Below, one piece after another: positions 3,291 to 63,801 of a stretch of 64,000 nucleotides of DNA (position 1 is the stretch's first letter; every line of letters starts with the position of its first letter). A model generated the notes under the pieces. That model saw nothing but the letters and a program-made list of their open reading frames with translations. It was not told the DNA's origin and did not search any database. The DNA lies in assembly GCA_037143235.1 (NCBI GenBank), contig JBAWZC010000004.1, forward strand, positions 1,776-65,775, written 5' to 3'. A program made the translations under genes and the position numbers. Source of the stretch: Candidatus Berkelbacteria bacterium. Its GTDB lineage: Bacteria; Patescibacteriota; UBA1384; XYA2-FULL-43-10; 1-14-0-10-43-13.

Positions 3291-3449
3291 AGCTTCATTT
3301 TAGCAAATATTTTCCAAATAAGCTAGAATTGAAATCAGGAGTTGGAAGTTGGAGATTAGGAGCTAGAAGTCCCCACTTCGCTCTCCGAGCTACGCGGGGC
3401 AGGCAGGAGCCAGTTTGCAGAATTAAATGTGCCCTTCCGTCCTCCTCTT

Positions 3450-3513
3450 GTCATTCCCGCGCAGGCGGGAATCTACAAAAGATTAAGCGGATTCCCGCCT
3501 GCGCGGGAATGAC
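3450..3513. repeat. Perfect 24-bp inverted repeat pair (GTCATTCCCGCGCAGGCGGGAATC and its reverse complement) separated by 15 nt. Each arm contains an internal ATTCCC-N8-GGGAAT palindrome.
   Basis: Read directly from the sequence. Related copies occur at 58771-58868, with partial copies at 53816 and 48262. Confidence 0.8.
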
Positions 3514-3544
3514 ATTAAAAAAATAGATGTCATTGCGAGGATCA

Positions 3545-14892: not shown

Positions 14893-14898
14893 ATCAGA

Positions 14899-14940
14899 AA
14901 TGTAATAATTAGTACGCTATAGCGTACTAATTATTACATT
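14899..14940. repeat. 42-bp perfect palindrome (AATGTAATAATTAGTACGCTAT / ATAGCGTACTAATTATTACATT) between ruvA and ruvB. Could be a terminator-like hairpin or a protein-binding site.
   Basis: Read directly. There is no strong T-tract after it. Confidence 0.6.
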
Positions 14941-15002
14941 TATAGACACAGAGGAAGGTATTATATTCTCGCTCTTTTCCATTTCTTTGCTATAATGCTG
15001 AT

Positions 15003-23739: not shown

Positions 23740-23758
23740 ACGATTTATTTGACCTATA

Positions 23759-23797
23759 AAAAGACAAGAAGCAGTGATGCTTCTTGTCTTTTTTATT
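23759..23797. terminator. Bidirectional rho-independent terminator between the convergent parvulin and gpmI genes
   Basis: AAGACAAGAAGC-agtgat-GCTTCTTGTCTT followed by TTTTTT. Confidence 0.75.
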
Positions 23798-25429: not shown

Positions 25430-26740
<1,311 letters not shown>

Positions 26741-26889
26741 CTATCTCAATCTACCATTTCTTTCGCAAAAAATCACCCCCCAGCGGCGATGAATCTTTCG
26801 TCGTTTTTTGCTCTGTTTCTCAACGATCGACGATATATGGAGTAAAGTCGACTTCATTGATAATGAGCGTGTTTTTTGTTAGTATGCGG

Positions 26890-27138
26890 GTACGTTGACT
26901 AGAGTTAGCGCTAGTACTGAATTGTGTGAAAGCGAGTAATTCTCCTGTGCGATAAAAAGCCTGCTGGTAATCCAGGTTCGAGAATCGTGGAAGCACAATT
27001 ACAGATGCGCCCTTGCCGGATTCCGGTGAGGTAAGGAAAGAGATTTCCTGAGGGTTTCTTTTTCCCCACAGAGCCTGCGAACGCAAGTAGTCGACGTACA
27101 CCTGAGGGTACACAGATCAAATTGCGATTTGTGTACCC
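26890..27138 (+). ncRNA. Candidate retron msr/msd non-coding RNA region upstream of the RT. Speculative.
   Basis: 13-bp inverted repeats GTACGTTGACTAG (26890-26902) and GTAGTCGACGTAC (27087-27099) match at 11 of 13 positions and sit about 185 nt apart. A second 9-bp inverted repeat GGGTACACA/TGTGTACCC lies at 27106-27138, just before the RT start. The region is GC-elevated like the RT. Confidence 0.25.
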
Positions 27139-27164
27139 TTGATCTCTTTTAAGGAGGCATGACA

Positions 27165-28145
27165 ATGCCATTACTCAGAACCAAGGAGTATAAAGCGGCA
27201 CTGAGTTTGGCTCGTCACCTCAATCTCAGTGTCCCCGACCTCATGGCCGTTTTGAAATCAGAGAACGGCAGTTACGACTTCTATCATTCTTGGCAGGAAG
27301 CCAAGAAGAGTGGTGGGTTCAGGACTTATCATAGTCCACTTGAGCCACTCCGAACATTTCAGCAGATAATCAGGGAGAGAGTATTATCTCGTCTTCCGGT
27401 GTCTGCCATAGCTCATGGCTATGCTAAAGGCAAGAGCATCGTCACAAATGCCGATGCTCACATCAAGAGTAGATCTTTGTTTGCTCTTGATCTGTCGGAT
27501 GCGTTTGGCTCGACCGCCTTGCGCTACAAGCTGAAACAACAGCAAAAAACGAAGAGTTGCTTAAGTTTAGCCGAATTTGGCCTGACCTTGCCGCAATTCG
27601 AAGTAATGCTGAAGTTGGTCGAAGTGCTACCCATGGTTAATAGTGAGATGCAGTGTTTGCCATTCCTCCCACAAGGCGGAATTACCTCTCCTGACATCTT
27701 CAACTATTGTTGCCACGAGTTGGATCGACGATTGCTTCAATTGGCTAACAACGTTGGAGGAAAGGTGACCAGATATGCTGACAACATCTTTTTCTCAATG
27801 CCGTCTATCCGAGTCGACAATGCGATTCGAAATGCAGTTTATCGGATCGTCCAAGAGTGTGGCTTCAAGCTCAATAGGAAGAAGACTCACCATATTGTGA
27901 ACGGCAATCGCAATGGTGTGCCACTTCGGCTGCTAGGTATCAATATCATCGACGGTGACATGTATTTGCCACCGGAGACGATAGAGAGATACCGAGGATT
28001 GCTTTATCGGGCAGGACTCGAGGCCGACCACGAGACATTTGCTTGGATCAAGGGCGTTGTGATTCAAGTTTATGGGGGTTGGCCGCCACGCCTTGCCGGT
28101 ATTTACCGGAAGGGACTCACGAAAGGAGGTCATTTATCACCATAG
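27165..28145 (+). CDS. Retron-type reverse transcriptase (RNA-directed DNA polymerase) with an unusual YADN in place of the catalytic YADD
   Basis: YDFYHSWQEAKKSGGFRTYHSPLEPLRTFQQII (RT domains 1-2, retron-like), AHGYAKGKSIVTNADAHIKSRSLFALDLSDAFGS (domains 3-4), LPQGGITSPDIFN (domain 5), RYADNIFFS (domain 5-6) and LNRKKTH. AAGGAGG sits 7 nt upstream of ATG 27165. Confidence 0.8.
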   Translation: MPLLRTKEYKAALSLARHLNLSVPDLMAVLKSENGSYDFYHSWQEAKKSGGFRTYHSPLEPLRTFQQIIRERVLSRLPVSAIAHGYAKGKSIVTNADAHIKSRSLFALDLSDAFGSTALRYKLKQQQKTKSCLSLAEFGLTLPQFEVMLKLVEVLPMVNSEMQCLPFLPQGGITSPDIFNYCCHELDRRLLQLANNVGGKVTRYADNIFFSMPSIRVDNAIRNAVYRIVQECGFKLNRKKTHHIVNGNRNGVPLRLLGINIIDGDMYLPPETIERYRGLLYRAGLEADHETFAWIKGVVIQVYGGWPPRLAGIYRKGLTKGGHLSP

Positions 28146-28356
28146 AGACGGTCGGCATTGCTGGCCGTCTCTAACTGTATCAAAAATATGAGATTGAGCG
28201 GTTTGTTAGTGGAGGCAAAAGGACTATGTCAGCTTGAGCTGTTTTTTGATTTTATTGATTTCTTCCTCGAGCCGACTGACATGATTTATCGTGAAAAGTC
28301 TCTCTTGGTCGAGACGAGCTAACACATTGGATATCGGATCAGTTCGACAATATGAT

Positions 28357-28385
28357 GTTGCAAAGCAGTGGCGCGGAGCATATAA
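28357..28385 (+). promoter_or_regulatory. Sigma70-like promoter for the coiled-coil gene pair
   Basis: TTGCAA, a 17-nt spacer, then TATAAT, about 30 nt upstream of ATG 28413. Confidence 0.45.
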
Positions 28386-28412
28386 TATAGGAAATGTAGA
28401 TTTGGGGGCGTT

Positions 28413-28697
28413 ATGGCATTACCGAAAAACGAATTGAAAAAACTTGAAACAGAGATAGCCGCTCTTAGAGCCACTTTCGACAAGACAAGAGAGAAGGTTC
28501 GTAAAACAGGTGGAGACAAGATTCAACTCTGGGCTTTTCGGCTAAATTCAAGAATTCACGAAATCGAGAATAAGATTAATGATTTAAAAGCTGGTAATAT
28601 TAGGGTTAATATTATTAGTCCAGAAGACGAAGAAATTGAGAAAAAGATAGCTCAGATCGAGACAAGACTGGGCATAGAAAAAGATAAGTATTTATAG
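28413..28697 (+). CDS. Small coiled-coil protein, hypothetical
   Basis: 94 aa, heptad-rich (LKKLETEIAALRATFDKTREKV, IENKINDLKAG), with no TM helix. Confidence 0.45.
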   Translation: MALPKNELKKLETEIAALRATFDKTREKVRKTGGDKIQLWAFRLNSRIHEIENKINDLKAGNIRVNIISPEDEEIEKKIAQIETRLGIEKDKYL

Positions 28698-28705
28698 GAG
28701 AAATT

Positions 28706-28978
28706 ATGGCCAGAATAACATTAGACGATCTTGCTGCGTCGATTCAAAATGAGTTTAGTTCTTTGCACGATCAAATCGATGGTCTGGAACAAAAAGTGGG
28801 CGGACTAGAAGCCGGGGTCTCTAGTCTGGGGCAAAAAGTAGCTAATCTTGAACAAGGCCAGGAGCGCATCTTTTTGCGATTAGATCATCTGGCACCACAT
28901 TTCGAAGTCAAAGATCTTGGTGAAAGGGTGAAAACTTTGGAGATTGATGTTAAGATATTGAATTCTGCAAGTCATTAG
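28706..28978 (+). CDS. Small coiled-coil protein, hypothetical
   Basis: 90 aa (LHDQIDGLEQKVGGLEAGVSSLGQKVANLEQGQ), 9 nt after the previous ORF. Confidence 0.45.
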   Translation: MARITLDDLAASIQNEFSSLHDQIDGLEQKVGGLEAGVSSLGQKVANLEQGQERIFLRLDHLAPHFEVKDLGERVKTLEIDVKILNSASH

Positions 28979-29047
28979 AAATAATATTCGGTAGACGGAG
29001 TAGGTTTGAACTTGTTGTTTTCTTGGTTGTAAATTTTAATCCGATCA

Positions 29048-29479
29048 ATGATCAAAAAATTAATTTATAATTTTTTCTACGATATCTATGTAGATTTGTT
29101 CGTTGCTTTTATCTTTATATATTTTGCTTTAATAGACTATAAAGTCGGATTTTTAAGCATTCTTGGCATAGCTTTAATACTGCTCTCTTTGCCTCTCTGG
29201 ATTTTGGCCCGCTTCCAATTAGGCAAATCGTTTGCATTAAGGCCAATAGCTAAAAACTTTGTTCACTCAGGTTTATATTCAAAGATTCGACACCCAATGT
29301 ATTTGTTCTCTTCAATAACTGCTTTCGGAATTATGCTAATACTTAATCATTGGTATTGGTATTTACTTTTTTTCATACTAATAGTAGTTCAGATTTTTCG
29401 AGCAACCAAAGAAGACCACGCGCTAGAGAAAACATTTGGTCAGGGCTACTTTGATTACAAACGAAAAACTTGGTTTTAA
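29048..29479 (+). CDS. Isoprenylcysteine carboxyl methyltransferase (ICMT) / phospholipid methyltransferase-family membrane protein
   Basis: Four TM helices and the C-terminal RHPMYLFSSITAFG ... ATKEDHALEKTFGQGYFDYKRKT motif of the ICMT/PEMT family. Confidence 0.7.
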   Translation: MIKKLIYNFFYDIYVDLFVAFIFIYFALIDYKVGFLSILGIALILLSLPLWILARFQLGKSFALRPIAKNFVHSGLYSKIRHPMYLFSSITAFGIMLILNHWYWYLLFFILIVVQIFRATKEDHALEKTFGQGYFDYKRKTWF

Positions 29480-29526
29480 AATTTTGTTCTGTTGCAACAA
29501 AAATAGCTCCAAGAGCTATTTTTTCT

Positions 29527-29575
29527 TTGGCGGCACCCTAAGCGTGTCAATTGCCAAGCTTAGCTTGGCGGAGGA
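29527..29575. repeat. Copy 1 of a roughly 50-bp intergenic repeat (TTGGCGGCACCCTAAGCGTGTCAATTGCCAAGCTTAGCTTGGCGGAGG). Its 5' part resembles a tRNA 3' acceptor end.
   Basis: Related copies at 30327-30373 and 31877-31926. The CTAAGCGTG hairpin core also follows tRNA-Pro (41283) and precedes the tRNA-Lys scar (48139). Confidence 0.7.
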
Positions 29576-29584
29576 AGCTAGAGC

Positions 29585-30241
29585 TTATTCCTTGATTAGG
29601 TGGCTGGTGTAACCCATTGAAACCAACTGCTCGTATGCCTTCCAGACATCTTCTGGTATCTCTTGCTCGATTTGAAATCCAAGTTTTGGATATTCTTTGA
29701 TTCTTTGTAAATCGCCTACCATAATATTAATTATATCTTGCTTTAGGATTGCACCATTTGAAACATACTCATCGTAAGATAATTGCGGCGAAGTGACTAC
29801 GAAATCTTTTTCTGGCCAGACCTTTTTGAAGGTCGCGTATGTTCGTCTTTCCATATAAGGTTTTTGAACCAAAACGAAAGAGTCAAAGTCAAGTTTCTTT
29901 TTTTCGAGTATTTTTTTGGTAAACTCAACATTCTCGCCAGTATTTGTGGACTTATTTTCAATTATTATTTGCTCTTTTGGTACTCCTAGGTCAATCGCAA
30001 TTTCGGCAAAGAGATCAGCCTCGGGTTTGTCAAAAATATCCTGAGTTAATTTGCCGACCCCACCAGAAAATATTATATACGGAGCGAAACCTTTCAGGTA
30101 TAATTCTGCCCCTCTCTCGGCCACTCGTTTATCATGGCTGCATAAGACAAAAATAGCATCGGCTTTTTTGATCATCTGATGCATATGATGATATTCCCAT
30201 ATAGTCTTTGCGAGGACATCAATTGTTGCTTCTTTTTCCAT
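29585..30241 (-). CDS. YdcF/ElyC/SanA-family (DUF218) protein
   Basis: AIFVLCSHDKRVAERGAELYLKGFAPYIIFSGG and the DUF218-type layout. Confidence 0.7.
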   Translation of the reverse strand: MEKEATIDVLAKTIWEYHHMHQMIKKADAIFVLCSHDKRVAERGAELYLKGFAPYIIFSGGVGKLTQDIFDKPEADLFAEIAIDLGVPKEQIIIENKSTNTGENVEFTKKILEKKKLDFDSFVLVQKPYMERRTYATFKKVWPEKDFVVTSPQLSYDEYVSNGAILKQDIINIMVGDLQRIKEYPKLGFQIEQEIPEDVWKAYEQLVSMGYTSHLIKE

Positions 30242-30326
30242 ACTATAAATATATCATGGTCATGCAAAATATTCAGCACTCACTCTGTCCTATAACAAAA
30301 AAGCATCTTCTGGAGATAATTTTTAT

Positions 30327-30373
30327 TTAGCGGCGCTATCAACACGTCAATCGCTAAGCTCGGCTTAGCGAAG
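30327..30373. repeat. Copy 2 (more diverged) of the CTAAGCGTG-type intergenic repeat
   Basis: TTTAGCGGCGCTATCAACACGTCAATCGCTAAGCTCGGCTTAGCGAAG. Confidence 0.55.
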
Positions 30374-30399
30374 AATAGTGGAAAAATAGGAATGTTTGC

Positions 30400-31806
30400 T
30401 TAAACCGCCAAAGGATATAGCTCAAGCTCTGTCCTCTGCGGTCGACTACCTTTGTCTGGCCTTTTGTGATGGCTTCCTTTTTGGATGGCGACTCCACCGT
30501 CTGGCCATATATGTACTCCGCCCATACAAGCGCCGGGGTCTGCATCCTCTTCATATTTCGGATTATCGTCGTGCTCTTTCCAGTGGCTTACAGATCCAGT
30601 TTGCACACGATAATAATATGCTTGATGTTGTTCGTCCATGCCTGAAGTTAATTTCAGTTCATTTACATATTTAATTAATGGAGCTCTTACTAATTCCTCG
30701 AATTCTCTATGCTCAGGAGAGCCATCTTCGTCAAGGCGAAAGACAATATTTAGTGGAAGACCCTGAAAAGCCAAGATCACGTTTTTCATATGCTCTCTAT
30801 ATTGATTTAGGTCTTTTCTTGCCAACCCTTCTGAAGGCGAGATGCTAATCCTGATATCTGAGAGTAAATATGGCTGTTCATTGCAAAGTTCGACAATTTT
30901 CTTGGCTGCAATAGGGCCTAGTTGGTCGCCTTCCTGCCAACCCGCTGTCGAGATAAATACTGGACGAAGAGGGGTGGCAATCATGCGAAAAGCATCACCA
31001 AGGTCAGCTATCTGTCCGTTCTCGTGGCGTAGGCTTGTGTCTCGCCAGTCAAATGGGTCACTGTCATTGAAAATATTAAGCTCTCTGCGAAAAGTATACG
31101 GGCTTAGGGGATAGTAATGTCGAAGAAATTGAAAAGTCCGACGGGGATCATTGCGATCTATCGGCACGGGAGGTACCTTTCCTTCTGGTTGATCGAAGTA
31201 TTTGGAAATCTCTTGGCCTGAGAATTCCTTTTCTATCGTCCTGATCAGTAAAATAGCATCTTCGGTAAAACCCTTATCAACTTGTTCTTTAAACCAATTA
31301 AGGTCAATCTTATTAAGATTAGTCCCGGTGATATTTTCAATATGCGTTGACCAGTCATCCCAGACTTTTTCGACTGGTATTTTTGACTTTTCAATCTCTT
31401 CGCCAATTTTGCCGATCATTACCAACGGCATTGATGTTAAGGGCTGGTCGACCCGATCGCACATTTCGCATTGATGGGAGCAGCCTTTTGTTATTTGGAC
31501 GCAAGATAAATTTTGGTAACCAAACACAACCTCTTTTTCATGGTCGGTCAGATGGACATCATCGAATAGATCAAGGCGCGGATTCTCAACCGTAGGTAGT
31601 TCCTTTGCAATTTCAGTAATTAAATCATCCGACCCATCGGCAATAGCATTCTCGACCCGAGCCCTTATAGCCTCACCTGCCTTAGAGAATGGGACGGTTC
31701 GCCGAAGAAAATTTTGGCAGCGTTCAGTTAAGATGCGTTGCTCTTTATCCTTGGGTTTGTCCTGATCCTCACTGTCGGGTTGTTCGGAGTGATTAAGTCT
31801 GTCCAT
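30400..31806 (-). CDS. Radical SAM domain protein of unassigned subfamily (468 aa)
   Basis: CxxxCxxC cluster in ITKGCSHQCEMCDR at about residue 108. No SPASM-like Cys-rich tail is evident. Confidence 0.7.
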   Translation of the reverse strand: MDRLNHSEQPDSEDQDKPKDKEQRILTERCQNFLRRTVPFSKAGEAIRARVENAIADGSDDLITEIAKELPTVENPRLDLFDDVHLTDHEKEVVFGYQNLSCVQITKGCSHQCEMCDRVDQPLTSMPLVMIGKIGEEIEKSKIPVEKVWDDWSTHIENITGTNLNKIDLNWFKEQVDKGFTEDAILLIRTIEKEFSGQEISKYFDQPEGKVPPVPIDRNDPRRTFQFLRHYYPLSPYTFRRELNIFNDSDPFDWRDTSLRHENGQIADLGDAFRMIATPLRPVFISTAGWQEGDQLGPIAAKKIVELCNEQPYLLSDIRISISPSEGLARKDLNQYREHMKNVILAFQGLPLNIVFRLDEDGSPEHREFEELVRAPLIKYVNELKLTSGMDEQHQAYYYRVQTGSVSHWKEHDDNPKYEEDADPGACMGGVHIWPDGGVAIQKGSHHKRPDKGSRPQRTELELYPLAV

Positions 31807-31876
31807 AATATTATTTTATCATTTTTTCCAGATGACTGGAATTTTTGTATATAAAAAAATCAATCCAGATAGTTTA

Positions 31877-31926
31877 TTGGCGGCAGGCTAAGCGTGCTAA
31901 ATGCCAAACTGAGCTTGTCGGGAGCA
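31877..31926. repeat. Copy 3 of the CTAAGCGTG-type repeat, fused to a duplicated tRNA-Asp flank (31848-31883)
   Basis: ATTGGCGGCAGGCTAAGCGTGCTAAATGCCAAACTGAGCTTGTCGGGAGC. It is preceded by TATATAAAAAAATCAATCCAGATAGTTTATTGGCGG, which recurs at 33357-33391 next to tRNA-Asp. Confidence 0.65.
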
Positions 31927-31937
31927 TGTGGGGGATG

Positions 31938-32357
31938 TTAGAACTTTTTGCTTAAGTATCCATTGTCAATTAAAAATGGAATTATTTGCTCTGTGATTGA
32001 TGGGGGAAGCTTGATTCCTTTTTCTTTATAATCACTTGAGATATAAGCAAATTCTTCGAGTTCGTCATCTTGAATGACTGGTTCTCCTATAATTTCAACT
32101 AGGAAGGCAGATAGCTTGACAATTGCGTCATCAAAAATTGCCTTCGACTCGAAATCTCTGAGTTTTTTAATGATATTAATATCGCAGCCTATTTCTTCGT
32201 TTACCTCGCGAGCTAAAGCGACTTTTTCAGTTTCGCCTATTTCCGGTTTTCCGCCTAAATTAGTCCAAATATCTTTTCCCTTTTTACGAACCATAATAAA
32301 GGAGTCATTTTTGATTGAAATGGCGATAATTTTATGAATTATTTTCATTTTTTGCAC
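31938..32357 (-). CDS. NUDIX hydrolase
   Basis: Nudix box GGKPEIGETEKVALAREVNEEIG. Confidence 0.8.
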   Translation of the reverse strand: MQKMKIIHKIIAISIKNDSFIMVRKKGKDIWTNLGGKPEIGETEKVALAREVNEEIGCDINIIKKLRDFESKAIFDDAIVKLSAFLVEIIGEPVIQDDELEEFAYISSDYKEKGIKLPPSITEQIIPFLIDNGYLSKKF

Positions 32358-33292
32358 AACTTTAATTTTTTGGTATCGATGAATATTTTCTTTGTATTTT
32401 GTTCTGATTTTGTTGTGGTTTTTACTTGTCCTAAGTCTAACAAGTTTCCACTAAAATGGCCAGTTGAATATGCAGTGATCACTTTTTTGTGCCAATTTAA
32501 ATCGTTTATCGTTCGGCCAGCAATTTTGAACCACCTAATTCCTCTTCTTTGATATTCGTCCATCCATTCAGGAAGAACGAAATAACCTTTTAGAATATCT
32601 TCGGTTTTACTCATAAAAAAGCCAGAACAAAGATTGTATGGGAAATTGTCAAAGTGTTGATCGCTGGATTTGTAGTTGTCGGCTAATCCTTGCAAAATAT
32701 AATGGCAATTTCTCATCAAACAATCACCGCAGAATTCGTTGACTAAAATCTCGAATTCAGCATCTTTTACTTCATTCAATTTATCTAACAATCCAAAATT
32801 TCTGTTTGTTCTTAGATCAAGAATTATTCTTTTCGCCCCAAGCCATTTGGCTTGTTCAATTCTCGGAATCGAATCAATCCCCATAATCGTGCTAGTGACA
32901 ACATTAAAATCGGAAAATTTTTGCTTTATGAATTCCATTGCTAACGGCGAAGAAACCGTGATAGTTTTAATTCCTATTTTATTTAGATTGATTAGCAGCC
33001 CTTTGATATCATTATCCAAATCTTTTAAAGTAATCGCCGGAGAATTAAGCGCGTAATTAAATCCTATGTTTATTGTTGATAATTTATCAACAAACAATCC
33101 GAGTTTGTTTATTGTGATAGCTGGCAATCTTGAAGATTCGCGTGCAGTATATTTTGGCAATGAGCCGTAAACCTCTTTAATTTTTGCACTACCTTGTACT
33201 TCATTAATCGATTTGTAAAAATTAATTGCATTTTCATGAAAAATAAATGGCACCGACAACAAGGCGTTAGGTTGTTTTGATTGTGTTTGCAT
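32345..33292 (-). CDS. Divergent peptidase-U32-family-like TIM-barrel protein with a Cys cluster. The family assignment is tentative.
   Basis: LGAKRIILDLRTN and EFEILVNEFCGDCLMRNCHYIL ... NLCSGFF parallel the U32 core (lGakRvvLaREL ... EvFvHGalC..SGrC..S). The Cys spacing resembles the Fe-S site of UbiU/UbiV/TrhP-type U32 hydroxylases. Confidence 0.4.
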   Translation of the reverse strand: MQTQSKQPNALLSVPFIFHENAINFYKSINEVQGSAKIKEVYGSLPKYTARESSRLPAITINKLGLFVDKLSTINIGFNYALNSPAITLKDLDNDIKGLLINLNKIGIKTITVSSPLAMEFIKQKFSDFNVVTSTIMGIDSIPRIEQAKWLGAKRIILDLRTNRNFGLLDKLNEVKDAEFEILVNEFCGDCLMRNCHYILQGLADNYKSSDQHFDNFPYNLCSGFFMSKTEDILKGYFVLPEWMDEYQRRGIRWFKIAGRTINDLNWHKKVITAYSTGHFSGNLLDLGQVKTTTKSEQNTKKIFIDTKKLKLCKK

Positions 33293-33385
33293 AAATTTAT
33301 TATACCAAAATATATAATTTGCGATATGGAATACCAGGTCAAAATTATAAAAAGATGTATAAAAAAATCAATCCAAATAGTTTAT

Positions 33386-33462
33386 TGGCGGGATCGGCCG
33401 GATTCGAACCGGTGACCTCCACAGTGACAGTGTGGCGTTCTAACCAACTGAACTACGACCCC
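33386..33462 (-). tRNA. tRNA-Asp (anticodon GTC)
   Basis: Hand-folded: acceptor GGGGTCG/CGATCCC, anticodon loop CTGTCAC, T-loop TTCGAAT, CCA encoded. Confidence 0.85.
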
Positions 33463-33557
33463 GCGGTAAACTATTTGGATTGATTTTTCTGTCGCAAAGA
33501 ATCACGACACTAAGATAATAGCATTTTTAGGAAGATTATTCAATCCTAAATATCTTT

Positions 33558-41203: not shown

Positions 41204-41279
41204 CGGGGATTGGCTCAGCTGGTAGAGCGCTCGGTTTGGGACCGAGAGGTCGTGAGTTCGAATCTCGCATCCCCGACCA
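41204..41279 (+). tRNA. tRNA-Pro (anticodon TGG)
   Basis: Hand-folded: acceptor CGGGGAT/ATCCCCG, anticodon loop TTTGGGA, T-loop TTCGAAT, CCA encoded. Confidence 0.85.
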
Positions 41280-41351
41280 CGCTAAGCGTGGTAAAACGGA
41301 CGCTCAGCGTCCGACCATTTCGCATTTTCACCATATATAAGCCGAGGGGCT

Positions 41352-47986: not shown

Positions 47987-48061
47987 GGTAGCCTCAAGGA
48001 GAGTTGAACTCCTCTTCCCAGATTGAAAATCTGGTGTCCTAACCGATAGACGATGAGGCCA
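47987..48061 (-). tRNA. tRNA-Glu (anticodon TTC)
   Basis: Hand-folded: GGCCTCATCGTCTATCGGTTAGGAC ..., anticodon loop TTTTCAA, T-loop TTCAACT, CCA encoded. Confidence 0.85.
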
Positions 48062-48149
48062 TAGTCGCAGAGCGACAATAATCAATTACCTAACAAAATG
48101 GTTGACTTTCTTGGTGCGGCGCTGAGCGCCGCTTTCACCACGCTAAGCG

Positions 48150-48167
48150 TGGTGGACTGCCTGGGAC
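48150..48167. repeat. 18-bp direct duplicate of the tRNA-Lys 3' end (TGGTGGACTGCCTGGGAC), 129 bp from the intact gene. Looks like an att-like integration scar.
   Basis: Identical to 48279-48296. The intervening 111 bp carry two hairpins (CTAGAAACC/GGTTTCTAG and GGGAAAC/GTTTCCC). Confidence 0.75.
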
Positions 48168-48278
48168 ATCTCACGCGCTCGACGGGCTCGCTTCTAGAAA
48201 CCGACGGTTTCTAGTATCTTCCTGCGACGGGAAACTCCCGTTTCCCGACCCCTTCCCGTTCTCGTCCCTGTCATTCCT

Positions 48279-48353
48279 TGGTGGACTGCCTGGGACTCGA
48301 ACCCAGAACCAATGCCTTAAGAGGGCACTGCTCTACCATTGAGCTAGCAATCC
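48279..48353 (-). tRNA. tRNA-Lys (anticodon CTT)
   Basis: Hand-folded: acceptor GGATTGC/GCAGTCC, anticodon loop CTCTTAA, T-loop TTCGAGT, CCA encoded. Confidence 0.85.
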
Positions 48354-53732: not shown

Positions 53733-53764
53733 TTTTAAAATCAAAAACAAAAATTAAAAAAGCT

Positions 53765-53796
53765 ATCTCGTGAGATAGCTTTTTTAATACATATTG
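53765..53796 (+). terminator. Rho-independent terminator after hup
   Basis: AAAAAAGCTATCTCG-tga-GATAGCTTTTTT. Confidence 0.8.
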
Positions 53797-58750: not shown

Positions 58751-58868
58751 CCGCCTCTTCTGTCATTCCTGCGAAGGCAGGAATCTAGCCGAGATAAACT
58801 CCGGCGGCAATCTACCGATAGTCTTTTGTGGATTCCCGCCTGCGCGGGAATGACAAAGTAGTGGGATA
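58751..58868. repeat. Cluster of three ATTCC(C/T)GC-N4-GC(A/G)GGAAT-type repeats, the same family as 3450-3513
   Basis: CTGTCATTCCCGCC (partial), CTGTCATTCCTGCGAAGGCAGGAATCTAG and TGGATTCCCGCCTGCGCGGGAATGACAAAG. Confidence 0.75.
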
Positions 58869-63608: not shown

Positions 63609-63624
63609 CTCGGTATTGCTCTAT

Positions 63625-63652
63625 CAAAAAACCGCTAGAAATAGCGGTTTTT
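63625..63652. terminator. Bidirectional terminator between the convergent ytxH-like and doc-like genes
   Basis: AAAAAACCGCTAG-aaa-TAGCGGTTTTTT. Confidence 0.75.
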
Positions 63653-63801
63653 TGATGGCTTAGTCCCGACTTTAGGCCATGTTCTATTTCTCAGTAATTT
63701 TTTGTAATTTATAACCTAGACAAACTTTATAAAAGTTGAAAATATTGACGAACTTTATAAAGCTATATTATGTTTGCATTTGCGGTGACTTGCCATGTTG
63801 C

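Follow-up and report, generated by a model that had tools for sequence, protein, structure and literature searches.

What are the short repeats that stand behind three consecutive genes of a Berkelbacteria genome, and how did they come to lie there? The repeats, here called c1 to c3, occur in a 64,000-nucleotide (nt) stretch of a Candidatus Berkelbacteria contig (JBAWZC010000004.1, positions 1,776 to 65,775; this whole stretch is the window below). A preliminary description of this DNA had offered two explanations, namely that they are the scars of serial site-specific insertions at the attachment (att) site of a tRNA 3' end, or that they belong to an element targeting tRNA-like sequence, comparable to repetitive extragenic palindromic (REP) sequences or MITEs (miniature inverted-repeat transposable elements). 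The second is essentially what the evidence shows. We consider it rather probable that c1-c3 are decaying, non-tRNA copies of double-hairpin palindromic insertion elements of about 38 nt that belong to the candidate phyla radiation (CPR)/Patescibacteria. The copies in the window are as follows.

29524..29577, minus strand: copy c1; hairpin 1 intact, 7 base pairs (bp); hairpin 2 with one mismatch.
30324..30377, minus strand: copy c2; hairpin 1 a perfect 9-bp stem; hairpin 2 lost.
31874..31927, minus strand: copy c3; both hairpins degraded.
41276..41317, plus strand: intact copy fused to tRNA-Pro; hairpin 1 at 41276-41292, hairpin 2 at 41297-41313.
48112..48168, minus strand: intact copy on a displaced 18-nt 3' end of tRNA-Lys (48151-48168); hairpins at 48136-48154 and 48116-48132.

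A repeat search of the window returned one direct-repeat family of about 45 nt, with members at 29527-29571 (the reference), 30327-30371 (69%) and 31877-31921 (82%), and this search and the gene map agree with the three intergenic places first proposed; an nhmmer profile built from c1-c3 detected no other full copy within these 64 kb. All three lie on the same strand, in gene sense, in the gaps 3' of three consecutive minus-strand genes: c1 starts 9 nt after the stop of the DUF218/YdcF gene, ahead of a convergent PEMT/ICMT-like gene, c2 starts 24 nt after the stop of a gene for a protein of 468 amino acids (aa), and c3 starts 12 nt behind the stop of the NUDIX gene. In the window the 9-mer CTAAGCGTG is found at four places (29538, 31888, 41282, 48143) against 0.22 expected, a count reached by none of 100 shuffles; among c1-c3 it is present only in c1 and c3, and c2 reads TCAACACG there.

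The layout that c1-c3 share with the trailer of tRNA-Pro and the fragment of tRNA-Lys defines a canonical unit, consisting of hairpin 1, NCCA-(C/A)GC-TNA-GC(G/T)-TGGN', an A/T spacer of 3-4 nt, a 7-bp hairpin 2 whose top is again GC-TNA-GC and whose lower stem varies, and often a second NCCA. In the tRNA-Pro copy (CGACCA-CGC-TAA-GCG-TGGT / AAAA / CGGACGC-TCA-GCGTCCG / ACCA), the tRNA's own ACCA (41276-41279) is the 5' arm of hairpin 1, the spacer is AAAA and the second ACCA lies at 41314-41317. The tRNA-Lys-linked copy, read on the minus strand, is CCACCA-CGC-TTA-GCG-TGGTG / AAA / GCGGCGC-TCA-GCGCCGC / ACCA, with its second ACCA at 48112-48115. The resemblance of the TTGGCGG at the repeat ends to a tRNA acceptor, pointed out earlier, is therefore real: the equivalent bases in the family are the tRNA's own N73-CCA.

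When a covariance model built from 89 metagenome copies alone (R2) was run on the window, the tRNA-Lys-linked copy scored 65.7 bits and the tRNA-Pro-linked copy 61.8 bits, so that the hairpins noticed earlier at these two tRNAs are genuine members of the same family. Copy c1 scored 47.4 bits (E 5e-9) and c3 30.1 bits (E 3e-5). Copy c2, at 12.3 bits (E 0.26), is not significant alone, and its family membership rests on the alignment to c1 and c3. No other site in the window exceeded about 10 bits, scores of 24-30 bits being reverse-strand readings of the same palindromic copies. With Rfam 15, only tRNAs exceeded the gathering threshold in the window, and nothing relevant appeared at E<=1 in 26000-33500 or 48050-48300.

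Copies c1-c3 depart from the canonical unit to different degrees. In sense, c1 reads CTCCGCCA-AGC-TAA-GCT-TGGC / AATTGA / CACGC-TTA-GGGTG / CCGCCA (its 5' part can also be given as CCGCCA-AGC); hairpin 1 of c2 is TCGCTAAGC-CGA-GCTTAGCGA, with C:G to T:A changes relative to c1; and c3 has one G·T and one mismatch in hairpin 1 and one mismatch in hairpin 2. Both c1 and c3 are one (different) mismatch away from an inferred intact hairpin 2, GCACGC-TTA-GCGTGC, and the form GGCACGC-TTA-GCGTGCC is present in three metagenome loci (L113, L157, L172). Copy c1 is about 89% identical, by eye, to the copy in a tRNA-Ser(gct) trailer of another metagenome (L116), including the acceptor-strand CTCCG. The tRNA-like part of c1-c3 amounts to 7-11 nt, and the evidence for homology extending into the c1 and c2 flanks is weak. 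Folding z-scores were -0.8 for c1, -2.4 for c2 and +1.2 for c3, compared with -6.6 for the tRNA-Pro-linked and -6.05 for the tRNA-Lys-linked copy, and we conclude from this difference that c1-c3 are structurally decaying. They would act at most as weak 3' hairpins, and their place just after stop codons may be the only tolerated spot in very short (105-158-nt) intergenic gaps.

The family extends well beyond this genome. The pattern CCANGCTNAGCNTGGN10GCTYAGSG, which matches the tRNA-Pro, tRNA-Lys and c1 copies, was found on at least 119 metagenome contigs and on none in a viral collection. The 124 matches listed are the basis of the tRNA, open reading frame (ORF) and pairing counts below; about six contigs are GC-rich chance matches that lack the hairpins, and the hosts have a taxonomic anchor only in the case of the window (Berkelbacteria) and of the GAPDH copies described below (Parcubacteria-type). 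The enrichment next to tRNA genes proposed for the repeats is evident in this set: 41 of the 124 listed matches lie within 4 nt of a tRNA 3' end called by ARAGORN, covering 19 anticodons, whereas a coincidence with a tRNA end is expected by chance for about 0.1% (148 tRNAs in 780 kb). The discriminator base N73 pairs with N', the base after TGG, in all 36 non-redundant tRNA-linked copies listed, and in 23 of these N73-CCA recurs right behind hairpin 2. The two NCCA copies are most often 38 nt apart (32 cases; 39 nt in a further six). Family-wide, extension of this direct repeat past N73-CCA was no better than in N73-matched controls, and a long target duplication was rejected on that ground.

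Across the metagenome loci, perfect GCTNAGC hairpins number 276, against none in shuffled sequence, and most of them form pairs spaced by 21 nt. In L132, identical units stand on two tRNAs that are separated by 137 nt; to judge from their sequence, these units may have been copied recently. An A-rich, retroposon-like tail follows the unit in L132, c1 and c2 and is not general, and no consistent run of T is found 3' of the unit. A scan of genome contigs with the c1/c3-specific CTAAGCGTGNNNAWTGCCAA gave 45 single matches in unrelated genomes, all chance-like; the sole Berkelbacteria match among them (L044) was rejected because it is intragenic and shows no other part of the unit.

Carriage of the unit by tRNAs is far from universal. 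Only one of the 11 functional tRNAs in the window has it. At tRNA-Lys in the window and at a tRNA-Met elsewhere (L154), it abuts a displaced copy of the tRNA 3' end, so the working tRNA-Lys and tRNA-Met do without it.

Copies away from tRNAs are found between genes and also inside them. With ORFs in the metagenome loci taken by a crude longest-ORF heuristic, 32 of the 77 non-tRNA copies listed lie inside long ORFs, about 26 of them with well-formed hairpins and in frame, where they translate, according to frame, as ..HA(E/K/Q)RG.., ..TLSV.. or ..PRLAW... The host ORFs of in-frame copies include GAPDH, GatA, aminoacyl-tRNA synthetase-like and RarA-like proteins. Compared with solved structures, one GAPDH (L077) has 13 extra residues and one GatA (L126) a net insert of nine residues. 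GAPDH orthologues that are 84-89% identical (alignment A3) are 343 aa long with the insert and 330 aa without it, and their names point to Parcubacteria/Portnoybacteria. At the DNA level the empty site reads GAC GGC / AAA (L173), and the filled sites (L077, L117) hold exactly 39 extra nt at this point, comprising both hairpins and flanked by GGC...GG(C/T). At the same site, the GAPDH gene of L174 (1501-2526; P0011/P0017) has a 33-nt insert (PPSLNGSGEAS) now devoid of hairpins, which may be the decayed remains of an earlier copy or stem from an independent insertion. As a discrete insertion, the unit is found at the CCA ends of tRNAs, between genes and, in frame, within conserved genes, and of close orthologues some have it and others lack it. 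Intergenic copies, in-frame copies and insertion-free orthologues together are the mark of palindromic insertion of the kind known from Rickettsia palindromic elements (RPEs). In a separate locus (L140 164-213 and 1225-1274; L082 is identical), there are two paralogous ORFs that look LamG-like by eye in their C-terminal part and end in ...LYRMGR*; their stop is the TGA loop of hairpin 2, and the element forms the ORF end.

The stems are kept as near-perfect Watson-Crick palindromes. In an alignment of 94 copies the two-hairpin structure was 98.6% paired with 210 double-sided changes, values that none of 500 column shuffles reached, and slid controls were 25-48% paired. About seven of 1316 cells are G·U, which at the outer pair is no commoner than other mismatches. 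Orientation looks unbiased: copies inside ORFs run with the ORF in 11 cases and against it in 15, and intergenic copies run with the upstream ORF in 13 and against it in 23, thus showing no preference for its sense. The scarcity of G·U, the lack of orientation bias, the many tRNAs free of the unit and the decay of c1-c3 together point to a palindrome that is maintained at the level of DNA.

We therefore favor a reading in which the unit would spread as selfish DNA. It may enter at short NCCA- or GCC-like microhomologies and leave a direct repeat of 3-4 nt; the flanking repeat measures 3 nt at GAPDH and, as NCCA, 4 nt at most tRNAs, and about half of the non-tRNA copies lack it. Terminal inverted repeats of the usual type are absent from the unit, each hairpin being its own palindrome. 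The 3' ends of tRNAs would be the favored and best-tolerated landing site because the tRNA's own N73-CCA can supply the 5' arm of hairpin 1. Intrastrand template switching, which is known as quasipalindrome correction from replication-slippage mutagenesis, rather than selection on an RNA fold, may keep the stems and the N73 match perfect; with switching from arm to arm, N' would track N73 without separate subfamilies of the element.

Several points weigh against this reading. The search pattern fixes CCA...TGG, both GCTNAGC cores and their spacing, so that evidence from these constant features and from the spacing of 21 nt is in part circular; it does not impose the covariation seen at N73/N', in the (C/A)-(G/T) pair and in the outer four pairs of hairpin 2. 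Orthologous tRNAs of different metagenomes keep the unit, which conservation would fit too. Only one pair of filled and empty sites is resolved at the DNA level, and the orientation counts are rough because the metagenome ORF calls are crude. As the preliminary description had it for integrases, no transposase or integrase domain is found among the window's 58 ORFs of at least 110 aa. In c2, hairpin 2 is gone while hairpin 1 is still a perfect 9-bp stem, with compensatory changes, which could reflect functional selection, and a role in 3' untranslated regions would also fit the fact that c1-c3 are all co-oriented with the genes and right behind their stops.

These last observations lead to the alternative that survives best, a functional RNA. 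Here the twin hairpin would be a 3'-end signal that tRNA precursors and three mRNAs have acquired, be it a factor-independent terminator, an RNA stabilizer, or a site of tRNA-like punctuation or processing, with hairpin 2 and its NCCA resembling an acceptor microhelix that RNase P could cleave and the A/U spacer an RNase Y/E site. The position of c1-c3, in gene sense and 9-24 nt behind stops, would suit such a signal, as would the 7-bp stem followed by NCCA in hairpin 2 of the intact copies, the compensatory changes in c2 hairpin 1 and the one sense-orientation G·U in hairpin 1 of c3; RNase Y is encoded in the window, and N73 covaries with TGGN' as it does in the pairing of a T-box with tRNA. 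Yet copies sit in frame within essential genes in both orientations, intergenic copies are not biased towards the sense of the upstream gene, and G·U pairs are virtually missing from the 1316 cells. There is moreover no consistent T-run behind the unit and no minus-strand terminator-like site called at c1-c3, c1 and c3 have lost stable folding, and most tRNAs are without the unit, two working ones having it only on a displaced pseudo-end. On this balance we regard a functional RNA as unlikely.

More doubtful is the proposal that the palindrome (C/A)GCTNAGC(G/T) is the recognition site, in double-stranded DNA, of a dimeric binding, modification or nicking protein, multiplied for a use of the host such as termination, replication/segregation or methylation. 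The core is indeed strictly palindromic over 7-9 bp, its central base being free, G·U is nearly absent, and the host loci hold about 3.3 times as many GCTNAGC as shuffles do (472 against 142). A protein site, however, does not require the variable arms to be perfectly complementary, which they are, and the units behave as discrete 38-39-nt insertions and decay freely; we take this explanation to be very improbable.

Least probable of all is a reading of the copies as hybrid attL/attR sites that single-gene cassettes left behind when they integrated one after another at a tRNA 3' end, or, in a variant, as part of an integron-like cassette array: every copy does bound a block of one or two genes, the region adjoins a tRNA cluster and holds accessory-type genes including a retron reverse transcriptase (RT), c3 is followed by the 27-nt flank of tRNA-Asp and preceded by 11 nt of which 9 resemble the tRNA-Asp 3' end, and genuine tRNA-end duplications exist at tRNA-Lys, but the unit is self-contained and elsewhere sits within ORFs and at 19 kinds of tRNA, only NCCA and a few bases are tRNA-like so that the tRNA-derived direct repeat is effectively 4 nt, the R''/R' boxes (RYYYAAC/GTTRRRY) are missing and the unit is shorter than attC, the window's ORFs of at least 110 aa include no integrase, and the best relative of c1 is the tRNA-Ser trailer unit of another metagenome and not tRNA-Asp.

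What survives of the att idea is a duplication of the tRNA-Asp 3' end with its flank, an event separate from the spread of the twin hairpin. The features concerned, and those of a comparable arrangement at tRNA-Lys, are these.

33358..33488, minus strand: tRNA-Asp (33386-33462), 'empty' site; CCGCCA / A and then the 27-nt flank 33358-33384.
31850..31883, minus strand: 34-nt duplicate (97%) of the tRNA-Asp 3' CCGCCAA and its downstream flank, forming the right end of c3 and the sequence beyond.
48169..48296, minus strand: 110-nt GC-rich insert (48169-48278) between the functional tRNA-Lys and the displaced copy; the original 18 nt at 48279-48296.

Behind c3 stands the same 27-nt flank as behind tRNA-Asp, and tRNA-Asp...CCGCCA / flank looks like an empty site of which GCTCCCGACA-unit-CCGCCA / flank, 1.5 kb away, looks like the filled pseudo-site. 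The flank copy behind c3 is 97% identical, and the arrangement shows that the tRNA-Asp 3' end and flank were duplicated around the 1.5-kb block of the U32-like and NUDIX genes. A perfect 22-nt inverted repeat, TAAACTATTTGGATTGATTTTT (33363-33384 / 33467-33488), brackets tRNA-Asp and has a third copy at 31855-31876 beside c3; of the matches upstream of the U32-like gene, the one most like a promoter has its -35-like TTGATT in this repeat.

The GC-rich insert at tRNA-Lys belongs to another element of about 100 nt. Homologous elements with 18-19-nt duplications of tRNA ends occur at tRNA-Met (L148 8102-7973, minus strand; L154 7353-7503) and tRNA-Gly (L081 6913-6740, minus strand), sharing the core GGAAGGGGTCGGGAAAC-N4-GTTTCCCG...GAGGAA...TAGAAACC-GTN-GGTTTCTA-AAGCGA and a second hairpin with compensatory changes. 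At all four tRNAs (Lys, Met, Met, Gly) the element lies between the tRNA gene and a direct repeat of that tRNA's 3' end. It has no Rfam match. A classical transposase was rejected for it since an 18-19-nt duplication is too long, and one fixed att core is excluded by the differing tRNAs. The tRNA-Lys insert ends in CCCTGTCATTCCT, which is similar to a second palindromic family that occurs as inverted pairs, TGTCATTCCCGC-GCAG-GCGGGAAT ... GATTCCCGC-CTGC-GCGGGAATGACA, in the window (3449-3514, 58752-58856) and on metagenome contigs that carry the twin hairpin (L167, L127, L071, L155). This second family presumably resembles dRS3 of Neisseria (ATTCCC-N8-GGGAAT). The window further contains A+T-rich perfect palindromes between genes, with 11-20-bp stems and 4-nt loops (14898-14941, 23758-23793, 53753-53788, 63623-63656, 1782-1807), which are probably bidirectional terminators, unrelated to the twin-hairpin family.

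Copies c1-c3 lie in a block (26.7-33.4 kb) between enolase/iPGM and a tRNA-Gly/Thr/Asp cluster that is followed by GatD/MurT. Its genes comprise a retron-type RT, two coiled-coil ORFs, the PEMT/ICMT-like gene, DUF218, the 468-aa gene, NUDIX and a U32-like peptidase; those named above with their coordinates are the following.

27159-28145, plus strand: retron-type RT, 328 aa; Pfam RVT_1 3e-16, PADLOC RT_XIII 6.9e-46.
29585-30241, minus strand: DUF218/YdcF.
30400-31806, minus strand: 468-aa protein with a CxxxCxxC motif (CSHQCEMC).
31938-32357, minus strand: NUDIX.

That 29.5-33.4 kb is a mosaic accessory region, as the preliminary description had it, is plausible, given the retron-type RT and the unusual genes found between enolase and the tRNA cluster. 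The label 'radical SAM' given there to the 468-aa gene fared less well: the CxxxCxxC motif is present, and the protein matches nothing in Pfam, NCBIfam or PADLOC, so the name remains a guess. An exact look-up of its sequence led back to this same DNA alone (L046, 100% identical to the window). Only seven homologues of it were found among 5.8 billion sequences; they are at most 59% identical and stand in a different context, beside a 114-aa gene and a PrsW protease. Homologues of MurT are at most 54% identical, and the nearest database relatives reach 54-59% at the protein level. When defence and other libraries were run on the neighboring genes, only the RT matched, as retron type; against the NCBIfam retron St85 family it scored 1.8e-37, below that family's cut-off. 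The RT gene is flanked by a 14-nt inverted repeat just upstream (27105-27139) and a 15-nt hairpin at its stop (28143-28173), and two small coiled-coil ORFs (28413-28697, 28706-28978) lie 3' of it.

The RT lies 1.4 kb from c1. One could picture the unit as a tRNA-end-homing element, with hairpin 1 completed by the discriminator-CCA of the target, the target chosen by acceptor pairing in the manner of T-box UGGN or an IS200/IS605 guide, movement through a single-stranded DNA or RNA intermediate, and hairpin 2 with NCCA serving as a tRNA-like 3' end usable by an RT; together with the unrelated element of about 100 nt, it would then represent a previously undescribed class of mobile DNA directed to tRNA 3' ends in CPR. 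We hold this speculative extension to be improbable.

How does the twin hairpin compare with known systems? RPEs, reportedly described by Ogata et al. in 2000, are short palindromes of a reduced genome that are found between genes, in RNA genes and in frame in conserved proteins, where they form small extra loops, and that encode no transposase. The unit behaves like them in inserting both between genes and in frame. In form it differs, since RPEs measure about 100-150 bp and make one long hairpin, whereas the unit has 38-39 nt, two separate 7-bp triloop hairpins and discriminator covariation; the two are probably unrelated in sequence. We know of no RPE fused to a tRNA CCA end. A mention of RPEs is found in PMC1779305.

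REPs and the bacterial interspersed mosaic elements (BIMEs; REPINs) are GC-rich palindromes of about 35 nt, often paired, that stand behind genes, may serve as 3' hairpins and are mobilized by REP-associated tyrosine transposases (RAYTs). They are extragenic by definition and have a GTAG/CTAC tetranucleotide, stems conserved within a genome and a co-occurring RAYT gene. Contrary to this strictly extragenic habit, some 26 well-formed copies of the unit are in frame in ORFs; its foot is NCCA/TGGN' with a variable N, no conserved GTAG is seen (alignments A1, A5), the lower stems vary, and no RAYT (Y1 HUH) was found among the window ORFs of at least 110 aa.

With att and attC sites the unit shares a direct repeat of a tRNA 3' end, or an imperfect palindrome behind each cassette ORF. 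Integron attC sites, however, have R''-L''...L'-R' boxes, extrahelical bases and 57-141 nt, whereas the unit, at about 45 nt, has two perfect hairpins and no boxes, and the window has no IntI integrase domain in ORFs of at least 110 aa. The repeats at tRNA att scars measure at least about 15 nt, against 4 nt for the unit; longer ones occur only in the other DNA described above (18 nt at tRNA-Lys, 34 nt at tRNA-Asp/c3). As for the T-box, whose antiterminator UGGN' pairs with the NCCA of a tRNA, N' covarying with the discriminator, the likeness is a resemblance only: the unit pairs in cis, in a DNA palindrome that abuts the tRNA gene, and has no leader, specifier or terminator.

Closest in form are the double-hairpin elements, GC clusters and repetitive hairpin-forming elements of mitochondria, which are G+C-rich, tens of nt long, fold into one or two hairpins and populate compact A+T-rich genomes, mostly between genes and next to tRNA genes and also within genes for rRNAs and proteins; mobility is ascribed to them, though not yet a mechanism, and those of Allomyces lack flanking duplications (PMC2800124). 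These elements are organellar, and their sequence is unrelated to that of the unit. To our knowledge, no coupling to NCCA has been described for them.

CPR/Patescibacteria genomes are regarded as highly streamlined, and in the searchable literature we found no description of small repeat families in these bacteria, although one may exist. Copies c1-c3 should not be taken for integrase att sites. If our reading is true, the unit would be a bacterial counterpart of RPEs and of the mitochondrial double-hairpin elements in which the way of insertion could be studied because the target (NCCA) is defined, would account for strange short insertions in CPR proteins and for unusual tRNA trailers, both of which mislead annotation, and would give CPR genomics a strain-level marker of insertion polymorphism.

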